A DNA stretch of 64,000 nt from Candidatus Multivoradales bacterium (GCA_965248925.1 CBDFLE010000005.1:1248001-1312000); one strand, 5' to 3'; shown: positions 48,625-57,481, numbered from the stretch's first letter. Notes: generated by a model not told the origin, from the letters alone. Made by a program: numbers and translations.

Positions 48625-49653
48625 TCAGTCGCGGGCAGTCCAAGGAGCCGGTAGGAACCCACGCAGACGGGTGCCAACCCCCTCCTCCTCGGCCAAACGC
48701 ACGGCCAAACCGCCGACCGCCAGATCCAACACCCCCAAACCAAAGGGGCTAAAGACCACTGCGCGCTCGCTGTCGGAACGGGCTGGTTGATTGCCGAGCA
48801 GGATGTCAGCCAGCGGACAGCGGACAAAGTCGCGATGGCCGACCTCAGTCTCGGTGAGATGTATCGAAGTGCCAGCTCTCGCCACATGATCGAGATCGTC
48901 GACTACGTTGTCAGCTGCCAGAATCGCCCGCGGAGCCAAATCGCGCAAAGAAATATGTAGCACCACTCCACCAGCAGCCATCGGAGAAAGGTCGTCTAGG
49001 TAGGGAGCACCAGCTGTCGTAGCGAAAGACACCAGAGAGCGCCCAGCGAGCAGCTGCTCCATGCTGGGCACCTGCTCGATCTCGACCTCACCCAGACTGC
49101 GGCGGCAATGGTCGACAAATTGCTTCGCCCGTTCGTCGGACAGATCGAAAACGAGAACCCTCTCCAGACCGCTGAGGGCAGACCGCAGAAACCGCAGAAT
49201 TTCGAAATTTATCAGGCCACATCCCACCAAGGCAACACTCTCCACGCGACGGCCATCAAGCAACACCCGCGCCGCCAAAGCCGCGCTCGCGGCGGTCCGC
49301 TTGGAGCTGACAATCGAAGCTTCCAATAGTGCCTCGGGATGCCCCGTGCGAGCCGAGTTCAGCGCCATCAACGCTGAGGCCCTGTCAAGTCCTGAGGTGA
49401 TGTTGCCTGGGAACGAAGATATCCACTTCATCCCCGCCAGATCGTAGTCTCCGCCCAAGAAGGCCGGCAGGCATATGATCCTGTTCGCAGGTTCCTCGGG
49501 GAAACGTAGGAAGCTCGAATGAGGCAGAGAGCTAGCGCCTTGACGATGCAACCTGTAGGCGGCGGCGACTTCATCGAGAATCTGCGTCTCTCGGTCTCTC
49601 AACAGAGAGAAAATCTCGTCACCCCTTAGGATCAACAAATGGTCATCAGTCAA
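48625..49653 (-). CDS. sbnB: 2,3-diaminopropionate biosynthesis protein SbnB (ornithine cyclodeaminase family)
   Basis: LPHSSFLRFP..NRII.LPA, KWISSFPGN, RTAASAALAA, GCGLINFE, LHISLRDL and FSPFGLGVLD motifs. Confidence 0.92.
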   Translation of the reverse strand: MTDDHLLILRGDEIFSLLRDRETQILDEVAAAYRLHRQGASSLPHSSFLRFPEEPANRIICLPAFLGGDYDLAGMKWISSFPGNITSGLDRASALMALNSARTGHPEALLEASIVSSKRTAASAALAARVLLDGRRVESVALVGCGLINFEILRFLRSALSGLERVLVFDLSDERAKQFVDHCRRSLGEVEIEQVPSMEQLLAGRSLVSFATTAGAPYLDDLSPMAAGGVVLHISLRDLAPRAILAADNVVDDLDHVARAGTSIHLTETEVGHRDFVRCPLADILLGNQPARSDSERAVVFSPFGLGVLDLAVGGLAVRLAEEEGVGTRLRGFLPAPWTARD

Positions 49654-50009
49654 TAGCTCAACCTCAGAGCATAAAGCCGCCTGAACGACAAAACGCCCAA
49701 TTTACAGTGAATTCTCTATCAAACACCCACAATCTCGGCATCGTCTTCACCGATCCAAATTGCTGGCAGATGTCTGACCGCTAGCTCTCTACGTCTGCGA
49801 CCGGGCCTCGACCGCCGAAGTCAAAGTCCGACCCCCGCATTATGTCGTCAGGCACTTGCCCGCAAATTCTAACACACCACCACCAACCGAAGTGAACTGC
49901 TCTGTACCGTCGAGCGGAGCTGAAGACAGATAACGCATCTAAACCTGTACAAGGTAGATTGTTAAACTTAGTCACTTCACAAGAGCCTCTTATCGACAGC
50001 TAGACAAAA

Positions 50010-50064
50010 GATAGAAACTGTTCTATCGCTACTCGTTGACAGAGTAAGATGCCTCATCTATTCT
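50010..50064 (+). promoter_or_regulatory. Sigma-70 promoter with an upstream palindrome
   Basis: TTGACA (50036-50041), 17-bp spacer, TATTCT (50059-50064). Dyad GATAGAA-ACTG-TTCTATC at 50010-50027. Confidence 0.65.
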
Positions 50065-50625
50065 TCCCCCACACCAAAGCCTTGGGGTGGTCATTCAACT
50101 CCAGGCGAGTAGGGGACCAAAACTTGATCAGACTAAATCCAGACTAGAGTCAGCTATTCGAGAACTCGCCAAACTGAGTTCTTGGTGTCAGCCTACGTGC
50201 TAGTGGTCGGCAATAGCGACCTACAATCCATCCTCCAGGAACCGCTTAGGGGGCCTGGAAAGCGTGGAGCGCGCCTACCAGCCGGAAGCCTGCAAAACCT
50301 TTTTGGTAAGTAGTCGAACAGGATACCGCTGTCTACTTGCAGCTCTCTTGGGAGCTTGGGCCAGATCATCGGCCCGAGTCAGCTCACTTTCTTTCACAGA
50401 CGGTAACCAGAGCGAATGAAATCCGCAACCTGGGCTTCACCGGGAGAATTGCGCGCGCCAGAAGGAGTGTCTAAATGCAACGCCTGCCGCCTTGACAGTC
50501 CACCATCGATAGACTTTTCATCACGAGATAGCAGCAACTTTTTGCATACGTTTAACTACACTTCAAACGAGTTCCTAATCGAACCCGAATTCAACCGTCC
50601 CCATCCTTATTGAGGAAATCATTCC

Positions 50626-50799
50626 ATGTCGATCAACACCTTCCGCCAGAACCTACTCAACAATGAGTCATCCAGCCCCATGAACCACGCCTTGGTCAAG
50701 CTGCAGAATGTCTCGAATCCCGCCGACTTACTGAGCAAGTCGAGCGTCGACTTTTTCCAGTGGCAGCCGTGGAATCCCGACGCCGAGACCAATATCTGA
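50626..50799 (+). CDS. ComX-like precursor peptide 1 (57 aa): MSINTFRQNLLNNESSSPMNHALVKLQNVSNPADLLSKSSVDFFQWQPWNPDAETNI
   Basis: GAGGA RBS at 50612-50616; below the ORF-track cutoff; paralogous to 55319-55498; upstream of the ComQ-like gene. Confidence 0.85.
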   Translation: MSINTFRQNLLNNESSSPMNHALVKLQNVSNPADLLSKSSVDFFQWQPWNPDAETNI

Positions 50800-50818
50800 C
50801 CGGGTCCCACCCCACCAA

Positions 50819-50843
50819 GCTGCCGCCGTCCAGTGGCGGCAGC
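50819..50843 (+). terminator. GC hairpin after peptide 1 (mRNA stabiliser or partial terminator)
   Basis: GCTGCCGCC-N7-GGCGGCAGC perfect 9-bp stem; no U tract. Confidence 0.55.
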
Positions 50844-51025
50844 GCCCGACCTTCCGATTGAGATCGCTGCTGATCACACCCAGCGCTCGCTGCTGCCGCG
50901 GCCCAGCCAGGACTTGCCAGGATCCGTTATTGCTCCCTATAATGGCCGCCTCCAGACCATGGCCACCCCCGGTAGGAAACCAGAAAGCTAGCAGGGGAAG
51001 GAGCCCAAAAAGTATCGGAGCGGCG

Positions 51026-52000
51026 ATGATTCTTGATAGCCAGAGCGTGCTCGAGAAGATCCAAGACCGGTTATTGAACTGCTCTCAGATCCACGGCTGG
51101 CCAGAGATGGTCGAGCTGATCAATCGCCCGGTGACGACTGCCGCGACACCGTGTTGGGAGTATCCACTGATCGCCGCCGAAGCCGTTGGCGGAAGAATGG
51201 ACGAAGCGATACCCGCAGCAACCACGATTTTCTCTCTTTTACAGAGCATCCACCTTGTTGACGACATTATAGACCACGACCCGCGCGGCCTTTTTCGGCA
51301 ACTAGGAGAGGGCAACGTGGCCAACATCGCGCTCGCATTCCAAGCGATCGCGGCGACAGTCTTGGTCGATCTCCCACTACCAGCCAAAGTTATTGCCGAA
51401 GCCCAAGCCTGCGTCGCTGAGGTCGCCCTCAATACAGCTGCTGGGCAACGCCTCGACGCCCTCGAGATCACCGACGAGGCAACTTACTGGCGGGCAGCCC
51501 TGGCTAAGACACCGCCCCTATTTGGCGGCGCGTTGAAGCTCGGGGCACTACTCGCCGGAGCCGAATCGAAAATCTGCTCCCAACTTGAAGACCTGGGGCA
51601 GCCGATTGGCAAGATCGTCCAACTCAGTGATGACCTACGGGACGCCATGGAAAGCCCGGCAAACGCAGACTGGCAAGGCCGCGGCAATAACTTGGCGATC
51701 TTATACGCCACGACAGCAGACTACCCAGAACGGCAGCTCTTCGAAGATCTCCTGCCGCGGGTCGGGGCCGAGCCAGAAGCGCTGACTGAAGCGCAAGGAA
51801 TTCTGGTGCGCAGCGGCGCGGTGAGTTATTGCGCCTTCCATATGATCGAGACCTACCGTGTTGGCAACAACCTGGTCGCCGCGACAGGTCTGGCCAACAG
51901 CAAGTCCATTACCGACCTGCTGGACCACTTGACTCTACCCCTGAAGAGTCTATTGGAGGCTGTAGGGGTCGATACCGCGGCGGAGCTCTTCGAGCCATGA
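51026..52000 (+). CDS. ComQ-like isoprenoid-synthase-fold enzyme (putative peptide tryptophan prenyltransferase)
   Basis: GGAG RBS. FARM DDIIDHD, GQRLD, KT and second motif QLSDDLRD. Lacks the GGKRxR and post-FARM RRG motifs of chain-elongating synthases. Confidence 0.8.
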   Translation: MILDSQSVLEKIQDRLLNCSQIHGWPEMVELINRPVTTAATPCWEYPLIAAEAVGGRMDEAIPAATTIFSLLQSIHLVDDIIDHDPRGLFRQLGEGNVANIALAFQAIAATVLVDLPLPAKVIAEAQACVAEVALNTAAGQRLDALEITDEATYWRAALAKTPPLFGGALKLGALLAGAESKICSQLEDLGQPIGKIVQLSDDLRDAMESPANADWQGRGNNLAILYATTADYPERQLFEDLLPRVGAEPEALTEAQGILVRSGAVSYCAFHMIETYRVGNNLVAATGLANSKSITDLLDHLTLPLKSLLEAVGVDTAAELFEP

Positions 52001-54912
52001 GGCTGCCGACCCAAAGCCTGACCCAGAATCGCCTTGGCAATGCAGTCTGCGTACTACTCTCTTTCCTGATTCTCACTACTTGCCTATTCTATTCCTACAA
52101 CTTCCTCAAGCGACCGAATTTCGGTTTCTTACTCTACCCCTACACTTGGGCCGTGGACCGAATTACCGAGCCTTGCCATGCGCCGACCGGTTGTCTGGAA
52201 CTGGGCGACCAGGTCCTGCAGATCGGCGACACCCGCTTCGGGACTTTTCGCAACAGTCGTTCCAGTCGGCTCTACAACTCTTTCAAAGTGGGTCAATCGG
52301 TAGACTTCGTTATTCTCCGCAATGATCAACAGATGACTGTTGCAGTCCAAGTGCTGCCCGGCACCCGGGCTGGAGCGCTCGACAACTTCTTAGCTTTCTT
52401 CTTTCCACTGATCTTCTGGTTAACCGGCAGCATCGCCATAGTCTTTCTGCGGCCGCGGGACGAGCGCTGGCTACTCCTAGTCGCCTTCTGGTACGACGTC
52501 GCTCTTTGGACGGCTTCTGGATTCGTCTCGGCGACTCAGATGTCCTACTCGTCAGTCGTTTTCAATTTCTCGATATGGCTCTTTATCCCGTTGATTATTC
52601 ACCTTCACCTGATCCTGCCAAATAGTATTCTGCCACGAATCGACCGCTGGATTCTACCTCCCCTCTACCTCGCCACCTTGACCTTGCTGATTCTCGACCA
52701 ACTTTACTTACTCGAGCGCTCAGTGAACCTGCAGTTGTGGCTGATCTCGATCGGTACCTCGCTGGTATTGTTGGCATCGCGTTACTTCCGCCAAGTCCAA
52801 ATGGCCAGTCGAGTGGCGAGCCGCCTTATGGCTTTTGGTGTCGCCATCGGCTTGGGCCCATTTGTGATCACCCTTTACATCACTCTCTTTCTCAACTTGC
52901 TACCAAAATACAACCGGCTTCTCGATGGCGTCGCGATGCTCGTGGTACCGATCTGGCCAATGTCCTACCTCTACGCAATCTACAAACTGGGACGAAGCAA
53001 GTTCGAGTTCCGTGCCAATCGCTTACTTACTTCCTATGGATTCTTCTCAGCCTACATTGCTCTCTTCGTTGCCACCTACTTCGTCCTCTACTACTTCGTC
53101 GACGACAATTGGCCGGGAATGACCGAGGACCCGGTAATCTTCAGCCTGCTGACTTCCGCTTTATTTGTTGCCCTCGGGCCAACCCTTCGCAATCGCTTCC
53201 AGCAACTTGTAGATCGCAATATCTTTGGTATCAGGTATCGGCCCGAAGCGCTAGTTAGTGGATTCGCAGAGCGCATCCCGACTTCCTTCAATCGCGAAAT
53301 CCTGAAACACCTAATCGTCACCGAGATCTTGCCTACCTTGCTGATCCGACAATCATGTCTATACCTCTTCGACGAGGAAGATCCAACTCCCCTCTACATC
53401 CAGGATCTTCCCTCACACCTGATCGCCCGGCCTCTGGACCGGGAACAGTTAGCTCAGCTGCTGACGTCCTCGGGCCGACATCTTAAGCGAGAGACTCAGG
53501 CCGGGCCGATGTCCTGGATCCGACTGGTGATACCGCTTTCAATCGCCGACCGCTACATCGGAGTCTGGCTCTTCGGCCGGCGTGACCCGGACGACTTTTA
53601 CCCAGAGAGTGACATCAGCCTGTTGCGCAACCTTGCCAACCAAATCGCCCCGGTTACAGAACATGTGCGACTGGTGGAGGCGGCACAACAAGAGATCGAG
53701 GAGAACCGGCGGCTACAAAATCAGCTGGTACAATCTCAGAAAATGGAGGCTGTCGGTCGGCTTTCTGCCGGCATCGCCCACGACTTCAACAACCTGTTGT
53801 CGGTCATTATCGGCTATTCCGATTTGCTGCTGGCTCGGTTTCGTGGGCAGCGTCCAATCCAAGAATACGTGTCCGACATTCGAGATGCCGGCAAGCGTGC
53901 TTCAGTGCTAACCAAGCAGCTGTTGACCTTCAGTCGCCAACAGGCCGTCGAGGCCCAGGTAGTCGACCTCAACCGAGTGATCTCCGAGGTCGAGAGTCTC
54001 CTCAGCCGGGCCATCAGCGGAGATATCGAGCTAAAGGTCGAGTTGGGCAGTTCGGAATACTTGGTGATGGTCGATCCGGGTCAAATTGAGCAGGTGCTGC
54101 TCAACCTAGCAGTGAATGCCAGTGATGCCATGCCCAATGGCGGAGTCCTTGCCGTTAGCACCGATCGAGGTGATCAGACTGCCTGGGGCAATGATCTCAA
54201 TTTGCCCACCAATGACTTTGTTCACCTATCTGTTGCCGACAGTGGTTGCGGTATTCCGAACTCTGCTTTGGAGCATATCTTCGAGCCCTTCTTCACCACT
54301 AAGGACATTGGAAAGGGCACCGGACTCGGGTTGTCAATGGTCTATGGCATTATCAGTCAAAGTGATGGCTATATTTTCGTCGACAGTCGGGTTGCCAGAC
54401 GAACTGGAGGCCAGGTCGACGATCAATCCTACTCCGGCACTAGATTTGACATTTATCTGCCGCTGACTACCGAGAAAATCTCGGCCCCTCTCAACGTTCC
54501 AGAAGAGCCGACTGATCAACCCTCTGGAATTGGCACCATTCTAGTGGTCGAAGATAACGATATAGTTCGTAAAGTCACTTGCGAAATCCTACGCGACTGC
54601 GGATATCAGGTTATCGAGGCCAGTGACGGGAAATTGGCTCTAAGAGTATTCGAGCAGCACACTGGCCACATCGATCTACTATTGACTGATGTGGTGATGC
54701 CGGCCATTAGAGGCCCAGAGCTCGCTCGACGACTACTGCTGATGGCTCCTTCTCTACGGGTGATCCTGATGTCTGGCTACAACGACGAGTCTATGATTGA
54801 AGGCGGCGTTAGCACCTCTTGGCCGATGATTCGCAAGCCCTTCTCCCCGGCATCCCTTTGTCGGGAGATTCACGCCCAACTCGATTCCGGGTCCTCGCCA
54901 GCCAGCAAGTAG
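51997..54912 (+). CDS. ComP-like membrane sensor hybrid histidine kinase (TM-PDZ-~9TM-GAF-HisKA-HATPase-REC)
   Basis: ATGA overlap with the upstream gene. PDZ-like [11 protein letters not shown]...V.F.ILR. About 10 hydrophobic segments. [34 protein letters not shown] and LLLTDVVMP motifs. Confidence 0.9.
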
Positions 54913-55318
54913 CTCGCAAAGAAAATTGTATTTTCTATATATCTATTGCTAAACCACTGACCCCAGTTTGACCTCGACTGAGCAACCGCGGGGGGCCATT
55001 TAGCGCCCCCTCTAGATAATTCACCCGCCTGCACAAAACCGGGGAATACACTCGGCTCTCATACCTATTGTTAGATGCGTATGGCAGGGTGCTGTTTGGC
55101 CTGACCGCCTGCGAGGCGCTCATCCATACTGTGCGGAGTTGCCCCCTAACGTAAGTTCGCAAGCGAGAGGGAAATTTCTTCTGAAAGGAGAATAGAGATG
55201 CCCTGTGCACCCCACTGACTAGCTCGAGAAGTCAAACTCGCCGAGTCGTCGTACCAGACTCCGACATCCTCCTGCTGCCCGTTCTGGCAGATTCACAACT
55301 AGTTTCAGGAGACCAGCC

Positions 55319-55498
55319 ATGACGATCAAAGCATTTCCTTCGATGCTTCGCCTAGAAGGCCATCCGCAACCGCTGTGGAGGGCATTGAGAAGTCTCACTC
55401 GGAGCAAACTCGAACCGGGCGAGGTGTCCATGCGGTTCCTGAGTTGGGAGCCTTGGGTGCCTGGGCTTGGGGATGAGACCGGAGCAAGTCCGGCTTGA
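55319..55498 (+). CDS. ComX-like precursor peptide 2 (59 aa): MTIKAFPSMLRLEGHPQPLWRALRSLTRSKLEPGEVSMRFLSWEPWVPGLGDETGASPA
   Basis: AGGAGA RBS at 55307-55312; below the ORF-track cutoff; shares the leader pattern and F..W.PW.P core with peptide 1. Confidence 0.82.
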   Translation: MTIKAFPSMLRLEGHPQPLWRALRSLTRSKLEPGEVSMRFLSWEPWVPGLGDETGASPA

Positions 55499-55582
55499 GG
55501 ACCTCTGGGCGATTGAAACCAGTCTCGTGTCGTTTTCGCCTGGCCTCGTCTTGTCACCACCACCGGCTGCAGGGCGAGGCTT

Positions 55583-57481
55583 CTAGTCCGCCGTTGCTGG
55601 CGGGTCTCGCAGACGATCTGCCAGCCCCGAGCTTCGCAAGGCTGGACTTTCTATCGCGAACCGGAGAATCTCTCGACTGGCAAAGATCTGTACTTTGCTA
55701 CGCGCCCGGGTCAGCGCGGTATAAAGTAACTGCCGGGAAAGCACTGGAGAGATTTCCACCGGCAGTACAATCGCCACCTCTTGGTGTTCTGATCCTTGGC
55801 TCTTGTGCACGCTCGAGGCCAGCGCCGATTCATGTGCTGGCAGCCACGAGGGAGCCACTTCGCGGACTCCATCGGCGGCTGCAAAGTAGGCTTGAGGACC
55901 GCGCTGCGGATGACTGGCAATGACCCCAAAATCCCCGTTGTAGAGTTCTTGGCGGTAGTCGTTGCGGGTGAGGATCAGAGGCCGCCCTTCATAATGCCCA
56001 CCGGCCAGGCGCTGTAAACCCTGCGCAGAGTCCAAGTGCCGCTCAATTGCTGAGTCCACTGCCAGCGCGCCGAGGGCGCCATGGCGATGGGCGCAGAGAA
56101 TGCGGAACTGCTCTAGCAACTCGAGCTTGGCGAGCGGGTCTGAAAGCTCTAGCAGCTGGCGCCAGTTTCTCAGCGCCCGAGTGATTAACTGGACAGGCAC
56201 CTTGCCGCCGGCGGGAGGCTCGATTCTCTGCAACACTTCTTGCCCCGGCTGCTCAAGCAACTGTAATGCTCGCTCGACCTTGCCAAGTCTGACGGCGGTT
56301 GCTAGTTCCTCGATCAGGCCGCCAGCGCTGTAGCGGTAGCTGTGTTGCAGAGTAACTATTGAGTCGCCGATAGCGGCGCTGTCATGGTCCCGATTCTCGG
56401 TCACCGAGTCTGGCTCGGCGGGCTTCAGGCTTTGCTGCGCGACTTCTTCGATATCCTGCCTCAGGCGGGTCGAGAAGCTGGCAGGTGCGGTACAGATATC
56501 GGCCAGAACCGCGCCCGCCTCTACCGCCGCAAGCTGGTCTGGGTCGCCTAATAGGATGCAGCGGGCGGTCTTGGGCAGGGCGCCTAGGAGCCGGCTCATC
56601 AGCGCCAGATCAACCATCGAGGCCTCGTCGAGCACTACCAGATCCGCTAGCAACGGCCGCCCTGGGCCATGTCTAAAGTGGCTTGTACTACCGCCTACAG
56701 ATCCCAGGGCACGATGCACAGTCGAGGCATTCTCGGCTATCCCAGCAATCACCTCCGGCACCACGTCGAGCTGTTGTTTGGCCTGGCGGATCGACTGTCC
56801 AAGCCGTGCCGCCGCCTTGCCGGTTGGCGCCAGCAAGAGAGTGCGCGGCGGCGGCTCACCGGCCGCCAATGCCTGCTCGCTGAGGAGAGTCAGAATCTTC
56901 ACCACCGTGGTGGTCTTGCCGGTGCCAGGGCCACCGGTAATAACGCACAGTCGCCGGAGGACGGCGATGGCCGACGCGACTCGCTGCCAATCGATCGCCA
57001 CGGTCGAGTTCTTAATAAAGAGGCGTTCCAGGCCGTCGCAGAGCAAATCTCGGTCGACTGCCGGCGGCGGCCCCCCGGCTAGCAGATGAAGGCTCTCTGC
57101 AAGGTCTTCTTGATGCCGCCAGTAGCGGTGAAGATAGAGCCTGCCACGGCGATCGAGGATCAAGGGCCGACTCGGCGAGCGCTCTGCTGACGCCGCGGCA
57201 TCGACCAACGGACTGGCGGCCAGCAGCTCCCGCCAACGCCTTGCCGGTGGCCAACTGCGATCTTCGGTGGAATCCTCAGGGCTGCTCGCCGGTGGCGTCA
57301 GCACCCAGCGTTCAAGATCCAAACACGAGTGCCCGCGCCTGAGTTGGCGAGCGGTCAGGGCCACCGCCAACAGCACTTCGGCACGCTCCTCGTTGGCCAG
57401 GCGACCCAGGGTGTGGGCCAGCTGCTCGTCCAAGGCGCCCAACTCGCCGGCTGCCCGCAGCTCTTCGAGAGTCGGTGTCAC
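55583..57481 (-). CDS. recD: Exodeoxyribonuclease V alpha subunit
   Basis: LYLHRYW, GGPGTGKTT, APTGKAAARL, DEASMVD and HKSQGSE motifs; GTGA overlap with recB. Confidence 0.96.
   Translation of the reverse strand: MTPTLEELRAAGELGALDEQLAHTLGRLANEERAEVLLAVALTARQLRRGHSCLDLERWVLTPPASSPEDSTEDRSWPPARRWRELLAASPLVDAAASAERSPSRPLILDRRGRLYLHRYWRHQEDLAESLHLLAGGPPPAVDRDLLCDGLERLFIKNSTVAIDWQRVASAIAVLRRLCVITGGPGTGKTTTVVKILTLLSEQALAAGEPPPRTLLLAPTGKAAARLGQSIRQAKQQLDVVPEVIAGIAENASTVHRALGSVGGSTSHFRHGPGRPLLADLVVLDEASMVDLALMSRLLGALPKTARCILLGDPDQLAAVEAGAVLADICTAPASFSTRLRQDIEEVAQQSLKPAEPDSVTENRDHDSAAIGDSIVTLQHSYRYSAGGLIEELATAVRLGKVERALQLLEQPGQEVLQRIEPPAGGKVPVQLITRALRNWRQLLELSDPLAKLELLEQFRILCAHRHGALGALAVDSAIERHLDSAQGLQRLAGGHYEGRPLILTRNDYRQELYNGDFGVIASHPQRGPQAYFAAADGVREVAPSWLPAHESALASSVHKSQGSEHQEVAIVLPVEISPVLSRQLLYTALTRARSKVQIFASREILRFAIESPALRSSGLADRLRDPPATAD

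Follow-up and report, generated by a model that had tools for sequence, protein, structure and literature searches.

A probable second precursor gene in a candidate Trp-prenylated peptide signal cassette of a Candidatus Multivoradales genome

The window analysed in this study is a stretch of 64,000 nucleotides from Candidatus Multivoradales bacterium (GCA_965248925.1 CBDFLE010000005.1:1248001-1312000), in which a cassette on the + strand is formed, in this order, by a short precursor gene (pep1), a gene for a polyprenyl-synthase-like enzyme, a sensor kinase gene and a second short precursor gene (pep2). The genes and the elements between them are the following, in window coordinates.

50626..50799, + strand: pep1, a 57 aa precursor, upstream of the polyprenyl-synthase-like gene
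50819..50843, + strand: GC-rich hairpin right after pep1, with a 9-10 bp stem and a 5-7 nt loop
50914..50943, + strand: sigma-70-like promoter match, TTGCCA-18-TATAAT (11/12), 5' of the enzyme gene
51026..52000, + strand: trans-isoprenyl-diphosphate-synthase-like enzyme (324 aa), with its true start at the ATG at 51026
51997..54912, + strand: hybrid sensor histidine kinase (971 aa), assigned by Pfam domains and hydropathy
55307..55311, + strand: Shine-Dalgarno-like AGGAG, 7 nt 5' of the pep2 ATG
55319..55498, + strand: pep2, a 59 aa precursor and paralogue of pep1 with an ATG start, the ORF under study
55542..55581, + strand: imperfect long hairpin, not significant, in the gap that separates pep2 from the stop of the convergent recD

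The ORF at 55319-55498 was found as an earlier note on this DNA had placed it, with 59 aa, an ATG and the AGGAG motif 7 nt upstream. It is separated from the stop of the hybrid kinase gene by a spacer of 406 nt and is convergent with recD and recB. The translated peptide shows a leader of the form M-T-I-K-A-F ... P-L-W-R-A-L-R-S-L, a W-E-P-W core and a 13-residue tail with a final Ala; in pep1, where GAGGAA stands 8 nt ahead of the ATG, the leader reads M-S-I-N-T-F ... A-L-V-K-L, the core is W-Q-P-W and the tail has 8 residues. The GC content by codon position is 0.43/0.36/0.83 in pep1 and flat in pep2 (0.60/0.57/0.58), which thus gives no compositional coding signal; GC3 in the neighbouring genes is 0.62-0.67. 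An antisense ORF of 114 aa (window 55219-55563, - strand) overlaps pep2 and, having neither a family match nor a codon-position signal, is probably spurious. The identical pep2 sequence is already recorded in the protein databases as a called protein, without any other member in its cluster. No close orthologue was detected among 5.8 billion proteins, where the window's own protein was the sole match, nor in metagenome contigs by two scans with pep2 and the enzyme as queries, and a search of the ESM Atlas with pep2 gave no usable match. One contig, probably from the source assembly itself, contains the stretch without any difference, and another shares with it only two identical 151-nt pieces in the enzyme/kinase region, so that no variants of pep2 were seen.

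The 71-nt stretch containing the hairpin after pep1 folds with a minimum free energy of -27.7 kcal/mol (z -2.2), and 4 of 200 shuffles fold equally well; placed between the genes for precursor and enzyme, this element may act as an attenuator or a stabiliser. For the hairpin 3' of pep2 the folding z is -1.15, with 28 of 200 shuffles folding equally well, so that no significant terminator was found after pep2. The sigma-70-like sites are consensus matches only, four being found in comparison with 2.5 expected in shuffles, and the + strand of the 406-nt spacer before pep2 contains none. The Rfam scan of 49000-56000 returned a sub-threshold chance match only, and the tRNA scan of 40000-64000 found none. 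The G+C content of the cassette is 0.49-0.59, versus 0.62-0.67 in the flanks, which suggests that the cassette may have been acquired or relocated. The dip spans the entire cassette (about 49600-55400), between a gene of the ornithine-cyclodeaminase family and recD, and its regional minimum (0.49-0.52) is reached upstream of pep1, in a stretch of ~970 bp poor in ORFs (window 49654-50625) that carries a promoter-like site at 50036-50064. No gene for an exporter, a leader peptidase or other protease, immunity or a transporter was found in the cassette; the host organism presumably has two membranes.

In order to establish the kinship of the two peptides we compared them with each other and with the peptides of relatives. 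The ungapped comparison of the translations confirms the shared residues M1, I3, F6, L10, P18, A22, L23 and L26 given in the earlier note, together with the cores SVDFFQWQPWNP and SMRFLSWEPWVP, whose last Trp is followed by 8 and 13 residues, respectively. BLASTP aligns pep1 and pep2 with an E of 2e-5 at 28% identity. A first HMM, built from 19 peptides of relatives and containing neither window peptide, was run against the 8-Mb genome, read as 173,771 stop-to-stop segments; the top rank goes to pep1 (E 8e-19) and the next to pep2 (E 0.02), with all other segments at E of at least 0.9. The claim that the likeness of the two peptides goes beyond chance is thus upheld. A broader HMM, made from 119 peptides that come mostly from other, more distant lineages, detects pep1 genome-wide at E 1.3e-6 and places pep2 third at E 0.27. 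When pep2 was shuffled 20,000 times with its composition preserved, the real score was never attained under either HMM. Furthermore, the HMM alignment of pep2 begins at the ATG and is colinear through W-x-x-W, and the BLASTP alignments of pep2 with family members are full-length and colinear, with a best E of 4e-5. Because the score under the broader HMM is weak, the sequence evidence for pep2 would by itself be rated as moderate, and it becomes strong only when the location at 406 nt from the cassette is added. No repeat at the DNA level links the pep1 and pep2 regions, and a recent duplication is ruled out; the two genes are therefore ancient paralogues of one family. We regard it as nearly certain that pep2 is a true homologue of the peptide family, and as fairly probable that it is a functional precursor.

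The peptides belong to a previously uncatalogued family of Trp-bearing precursors whose genes accompany those of a sensor kinase and a prenyltransferase-like enzyme. That pep1 and pep2 define a new family, as had been proposed, is borne out: they are homologous members of it, no relevant Pfam or NCBIfam model matches any of 119 family members, and neither window peptide has a Pfam match at E<=0.01. Family peptides are about 50-75 aa long, and their genes adjoin one for a polyprenyl-synthase-like enzyme and another for a hybrid histidine kinase of the multi-pass type. A conserved leader of ~30 residues and the W-x-x-W core are joined by a variable linker, and the tail after the core varies as well, the signature being M-x-I-x-x-F ... 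L-F-x-A-L-R-x-L plus the W-x-x-W core. The leader start is present in 143 of the 150 top representatives and W-x-x-W in 147; the family motif is therefore W-x-x-W, and the FxxWxPWxP core that the earlier note had generalised from two sequences has to be given up in this role. Neither the Phe three residues before W-x-x-W nor the Pro inside it is conserved family-wide, and both are local traits of the pair in this genome. In an alignment of 119 sequences, with pep2 numbering, F6 and W46 do not vary at all, and conservation reaches at least 90% at M1, L23 and W43; the start codons of these 119 unique peptides are ATG in 117 cases and GTG in two. A profile search of 1.84 billion protein representatives gave 420 clusters at E<=1e-3 and 135 at E<=1e-10, the matched proteins being nearly all 46-125 aa long.

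The acidic tail described beforehand is indeed net acidic, but it is not a fixed module, since 1-80 residues (median 13), rich in Ala, Pro, Gly and Ser, follow the last W-x-x-W. Of 140 representatives, 79 end in Ala, versus a share of Ala of 19% among tail residues overall, and 99 end in A, V, I or L. Codon-level purifying selection, expected by the earlier note, is seen in the family, where the pooled dN/dS is 0.25 (Nei-Gojobori, 13 non-overlapping equal-length gene pairs), and pep2 itself is without a close orthologue for such a comparison. More distant family pairs give values of 0.12-0.33. In the closest ones (the peptide genes of loci L066/L071 and L074/L086) the values are 0.7-1.4, from three pairs with very few changes, and may reflect signal diversification or noise. 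Some Myxococcota precursors (L103:5712-5975, L105:5455-5976 and L121:5718-5990), including that of Plesiocystis pacifica SIR-1, have 3-4 W-x-x-W cores per peptide and no adjacent kinase homologue; one of their cores, ATWEPWVPA, is close to that of pep2.

Of 61 related genomes (the window's own included), 23 have homologues of the enzyme, as do 17 of 23 genomes from the window organism's own family. Across an even phylum-wide sample the enzyme is found in only five of 401 genomes, again with the window's own, and the system is therefore patchy and lineage-restricted. Six-frame reading of the relatives' loci revealed, adjoining the enzyme gene, small ORFs with an M-[ST]-I-x-x-F start, an A-L-R-x-L stretch and two Trp as W-x-x-W at or near the C-terminus; ORFs with leader and W-x-x-W stand beside the enzyme gene in 18 of 25 such loci. 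A conserved upstream cluster, of a '360-aa protein', was dropped as an Arg/Ala/Gly-rich shadow frame. A scan with one genome per species retrieved 102 relatives of the enzyme, from which 79 loci were kept, mostly from MAGs labelled Thermoanaerobaculia, Holophagales or Acidobacteriota; the others come from Ca. Entotheonella TSY1 (L080), Plesiocystis pacifica, Aureisphaera galaxeae and two more Myxococcota/'Deltaproteobacteria' MAGs. The earlier note had staked its proposal on conservation in related genomes, and at E<=1e-3 at least one precursor is present in 73 of the 79 loci and at least two in 47. Three of the six loci left without a peptide (L080, L105 and L130) show peptides at weaker E or by eye. 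In four loci (L042, L043, L036 and L049) the enzyme is present, with or without the kinase, and no W-x-x-W peptide could be detected over a distance of about 1 kb; the enzymes there may have other substrates, or substrates encoded elsewhere.

When the peptide is written as x, the enzyme as Q and the sensor half of the kinase as K, the norm of the family among the 79 loci is the order xQxK (35 loci), followed by xQK (17), xQ (6), xQxQK (4; L076, L096, L098 and L113, where the peptide-enzyme pair is duplicated in tandem), Q (4), xQx (3), xxQK (3) and QK (2), and five further orders occur in one locus each. In L082/L030 the order is rearranged to x-K-Q-K, a second kinase being present. The order of the window, with a peptide after the kinase, is rare and recurs in four relatives (L040/L119, L045, L029/L099 and L047), all belonging to the taxonomic family of the window organism. 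Their spacers are similar, of about 300-430 nt, and each of their post-kinase peptide genes has a Shine-Dalgarno-like motif before the start. The residue after the second Trp is aliphatic in all five post-kinase peptides (V, L, L, L and I); at the same site the other position classes have mainly Pro, Thr, Ser, Asp or Ala.

The enzyme matches the Pfam family polyprenyl_synt (PF00348) with an E of 4.3e-15, and its matches to the NCBIfam synthase models stay at or below 60 bits, against cut-offs of 275-600. An alignment of 19 homologues shows the invariant residues D80, D81 and D84 (DDxxD) as well as Q200, D203, D204 and D207 (Q-x-x-DDxxD). The LGGKRLRP segment and the GK-T region of the housekeeping synthase of the same genome are missing from the enzyme, and in the profile alignment to GGPP synthases a two-residue stretch with the first Arg of R-R-G is deleted. 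We take the missing segments to be the diphosphate/IPP-binding elements of trans-isoprenyl synthases, and their loss would fit a transferase without chain elongation. The best profile matches in the PDB are ordinary GGPP synthases (E 1.5e-17), ahead of 9v4g ('prenyltransferase', E 2.3e-13). A cross-linking of the Trp residues, as exemplified by darobactin, was rejected, since there is no radical-SAM or P450 gene in the cassette. By analogy with ComQ the enzyme is a candidate peptide Trp prenyltransferase. The characterised trans-IDS-like peptide prenyltransferases, as reviewed in 2026 in the relevant part of PMC13290415 (ComQ, the P domain of ChrPC and PalQ), all target Trp.

The start of the kinase gene overlaps the stop of the enzyme gene (ATGA), and the kinase thus appears to be translationally coupled to the enzyme. 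Hydropathy places the first transmembrane segment at residues 13-31, followed by a loop of 96 residues and at least seven more hydrophobic segments up to about residue 397; after these come GAF, HisKA (PF00512), HATPase and REC domains. The sensor half lies beside the enzyme gene in 66 of the 79 loci, with 36-43% identity across loci. The loop (residues 32-127, window 52090-52380), the first extracytoplasmic one of the kinase, looks PDZ-like: a profile from 28 homologues was compared with the PDB, and all 60 matches listed are PDZ proteins, the best one (E 9e-5) being the PDZ tandem of an RseP-type protease. Pfam PDZ_2 matches the loop itself at E 2.8e-4 with 21.6 bits, under its cut-off of 27 bits, and three Pfam PDZ families give 6, 5 and 2 matches (13 in total) among the 28 loop homologues. 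PDZ domains typically bind C-termini. The presence of a PDZ-like loop together with tails ending in Ala suggests as a hypothesis that the peptide tail may be read by the sensor, and not merely trimmed. Upstream of the peptide system, in 60 of the 79 loci, there is a same-strand gene for a REC-EAL protein, that is, a response regulator with a c-di-GMP phosphodiesterase (for example L127:1129-2358, on the same strand, among loci L053-L131), which suggests c-di-GMP turnover as the usual output in the related loci. No REC-EAL gene is found beside the cassette of the window.

The comparison with Bacillus ComX made in the earlier note would hold for function only, and it fails for family features, those specific to ComX, ComQ and ComP not being found here. 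The locus features and census of ComQXPA are taken from the part of PMC4008528 that deals with them. As in Bacillus subtilis ComQ-ComX-ComP, a small precursor with Trp near its C-terminus is encoded next to an enzyme of the polyprenyl_synt family, and a multi-pass sensor kinase follows on the same strand with overlapping genes. The comQXPA locus consists of four same-strand genes in the order Q-X-P-A, whereas the order here is X-Q-P-X and the family norm is X-Q-X-P; no ComA-type regulator is adjacent to the cassette. The functional definition of ComX in that part of PMC4008528 is a precursor of 52-73 aa with Trp 5-10 residues from the C-terminus. Both window peptides (57 and 59 aa) lie within this length range, and with 8 residues after its last Trp pep1 also lies inside the interval of 5-10, pep2 with 13 being outside, as is the family median of 13. 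Unlike ComX, these peptides have two Trp (W-x-x-W) with 8-13 residues after the last one, and none of the 119 family peptides matches Pfam ComX (PF05952).

The enzyme shares with the ComQ family (IPR033965) the polyprenyl_synt superfamily and the first motif DDxxD. ComQ and StheQ carry a pseudo second Asp-rich motif, NDxxx, according to the sections of bioRxiv 10.64898/2026.08.29.745113 covered here, whereas the present enzyme keeps the canonical Q-x-x-D-D-x-x-D, so that by the pseudo-motif criterion its family would not be counted within ComQ. In the corresponding part of PMC4008528, ComP is described as a multi-pass sensor with a HisKA_3 (PF07730) core; the kinase of the window is likewise multi-pass, with at least eight hydrophobic segments, but it is a HisKA-type (PF00512) hybrid with PDZ-like, GAF and REC parts, and PF07730 is not among its listed matches. 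The phylum here is Acidobacteriota and not Firmicutes, outside which the 2014 census, as given in that part of PMC4008528, recorded no comQXPA.

Other systems resemble the cassette in part. Paenibacillus alvei PalP-PalX-PalQ likewise groups three genes, for a histidine kinase, a precursor and a Trp prenyltransferase of the trans-IDS-like type, in which PalX has an NHLP-type (nitrile-hydratase-like) leader and a C-terminal Trp, as stated in the sections of PMC10853753 on this cluster; the activity of PalQ is lost when the peptide extends past the Trp, according to the passage on it in PMC13290415. In contrast to PalX, none of the 119 family leaders matches NHLP or another Pfam or NCBIfam leader family, the Trp residues are internal in most members and C-terminal in few, and a second precursor is usual. 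In Sphaerobacter thermophilus a ComQ-like enzyme outside Firmicutes, StheQ, is accompanied by the adjacent precursor StheX (~69 aa), prenylated on a Trp near the C-terminus; it differs from the present cassette in that there is only one precursor, modified at one Trp site that is the second residue from the C-terminus, and no pairing with a kinase is mentioned in the sections covered (bioRxiv 10.64898/2026.08.29.745113). The P domain of ChrPC is also trans-IDS-like and modifies an internal Trp of a ribosomal peptide (Hubrich et al. 2024, as cited in part of PMC13290415), but ChrPC is fused to a terpene cyclase domain, of which neither a domain nor a gene is found in the cassette. Our literature search, with supplements and Hubrich 2024 outside its scope, yielded no paper that ties ComQ-like systems to Acidobacteriota or to Gram-negative phyla. 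The 2026 preprint presents, in the sections covered, the Chloroflexi enzyme-peptide pair as the first extension beyond Firmicutes (bioRxiv 10.64898/2026.08.29.745113).

The best reading of the cassette, drawn from analogy, is a Trp-prenylated peptide signal that would be ComQ/ComX/ComP-like by function and not by family membership. On balance we favour the view that pep2 is genuine and provides the second precursor of a peptide-signal cassette working like Bacillus ComQ-ComX-ComP, and we infer that its peptides are prenylated on Trp, exported and sensed by the kinase. In this mechanism the enzyme would bind the leader and prenylate one or both core Trp, after which the leader would be removed and the lipopeptide would leave the cell. 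The multi-pass hybrid kinase would then sense the lipopeptide; the prenyl-Trp may act at the membrane domain of the kinase and the C-terminus ending in Ala may bind the PDZ-like periplasmic loop. The output would pass via the REC domain to the REC-EAL protein that is adjacent in most of the related loci. Two non-identical precursors per locus are the rule, and the pep1 and pep2 products thus probably differ in their role, either as two signals or as a signal and a modulator. Much more tentatively, it is possible, although we remain rather doubtful, that a widespread two-precursor system of Trp-prenylated pheromones operates in diderms (Acidobacteriota, Myxococcota, Bacteroidota and Ca. Entotheonella), in which a trans-IDS-like enzyme with both canonical Asp-rich motifs that lipidates the W-x-x-W core, an Ala tail gripped by PDZ, a contact of prenyl-Trp with the membrane and c-di-GMP breakdown via REC-EAL would be combined with two ligands, for example an agonist and a modulator.

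Several features of pep2 would also fit a true homologue that decays or stays silent, as a paralogue left after the rearrangement of a peptide-enzyme-peptide-kinase operon from which pep1 alone is used. These are the flat GC by codon position, the weak score under the broader HMM, the spacer without a promoter-like site on the + strand, the lack of a significant terminator and of any orthologue by which constraint could be seen. We consider such a silent paralogue unlikely, as the frame is intact with its ATG and AGGAG at 7 nt, the peptide keeps M1, F6, L23, W43 and W46, which are all the invariant or near-invariant positions, intact post-kinase peptide genes with Shine-Dalgarno-like motifs occur in four other genomes, and two precursors per locus are the norm of the family (47 of 79).

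The peptides might instead be precursors of prenylated RiPP products, such as a two-component membrane-active lipopeptide, with a kinase that only regulates or senses production. Pairs of differing precursors do resemble two-component bacteriocins, the 3-4 cores in the Myxococcota precursors (L103, L105 and L121) are typical of RiPP product multiplication, one locus (L080) belongs to Ca. Entotheonella, a producer-rich lineage, and antiSMASH had initially marked the PalQ cluster itself as a RiPP cluster, as reported in that part of PMC10853753. The dedicated multi-pass kinase in 66 of 79 loci and the upstream REC-EAL gene in 60 of 79, however, constitute a signalling wiring as in ComQXP and PalQXP, and the cassette has no gene for immunity, a transporter or a protease, which makes this explanation improbable in our judgement.

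A further reading, very improbable in our view, takes the enzyme for an ordinary isoprenyl diphosphate synthase, with small proteins that stay unmodified and act inside the cell as partners or regulators of the kinase. The two canonical Asp-rich motifs with the Gln before the second one, the chain-elongating synthases as best PDB and NCBIfam matches, and the lack of a signal sequence in the peptides are in agreement with this idea, but the enzyme lacks the GGKRLRP and GK-T regions of the housekeeping synthase, its NCBIfam matches fall far under the cut-offs (at most 60 bits vs 275-600), and it co-occurs strictly with peptides in whose core nothing but two Trp is invariant, Trp being, according to the corresponding part of PMC13290415, the one residue that trans-IDS-like peptide prenyltransferases are known to target. 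That ORF 55319-55498 is a chance open frame resembling pep1 by coincidence is extremely improbable, since against its shortness, the missing compositional coding signal and the overlapping 114-aa antisense ORF stand the rank 2 of 173,771 under an independent HMM within 410 nt of the cassette, the 20,000 shuffles that do not match its score and the full-length colinear alignment from the ATG.

Signalling by prenylated-Trp peptides has so far been regarded as a speciality of Firmicutes. If the signalling interpretation of the cassette is true, the same logic would exist in the abundant, mostly uncultured soil Acidobacteriota and in other Gram-negative phyla, with its own leader, a double-Trp core, paired precursors, a PDZ-like kinase loop and a likely c-di-GMP output as distinctive traits. 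For the chemistry of peptide lipidation it would supply natural pairs of enzyme and substrate by the hundred, and it would offer a testable handle on cell-cell signalling in Acidobacteriota, where hardly any is known. What appears to be new here, as judged from sequence, is the uncatalogued precursor family, Trp-prenylated peptide signalling itself being already known. No model of the family is available to gene callers or in curated libraries, and the profile of leader and W-x-x-W could be applied directly to annotation.

The locus of Aureisphaera galaxeae (Flavobacteriaceae) shows a different arrangement, in which three tandem precursors with WDMW, WDPW and WTVW cores (L130:5238-5916) stand before the enzyme gene and a membrane-anchored Trans_reg_C (ToxR/CadC-like) regulator (L130:4554-5174) takes the place of the kinase.
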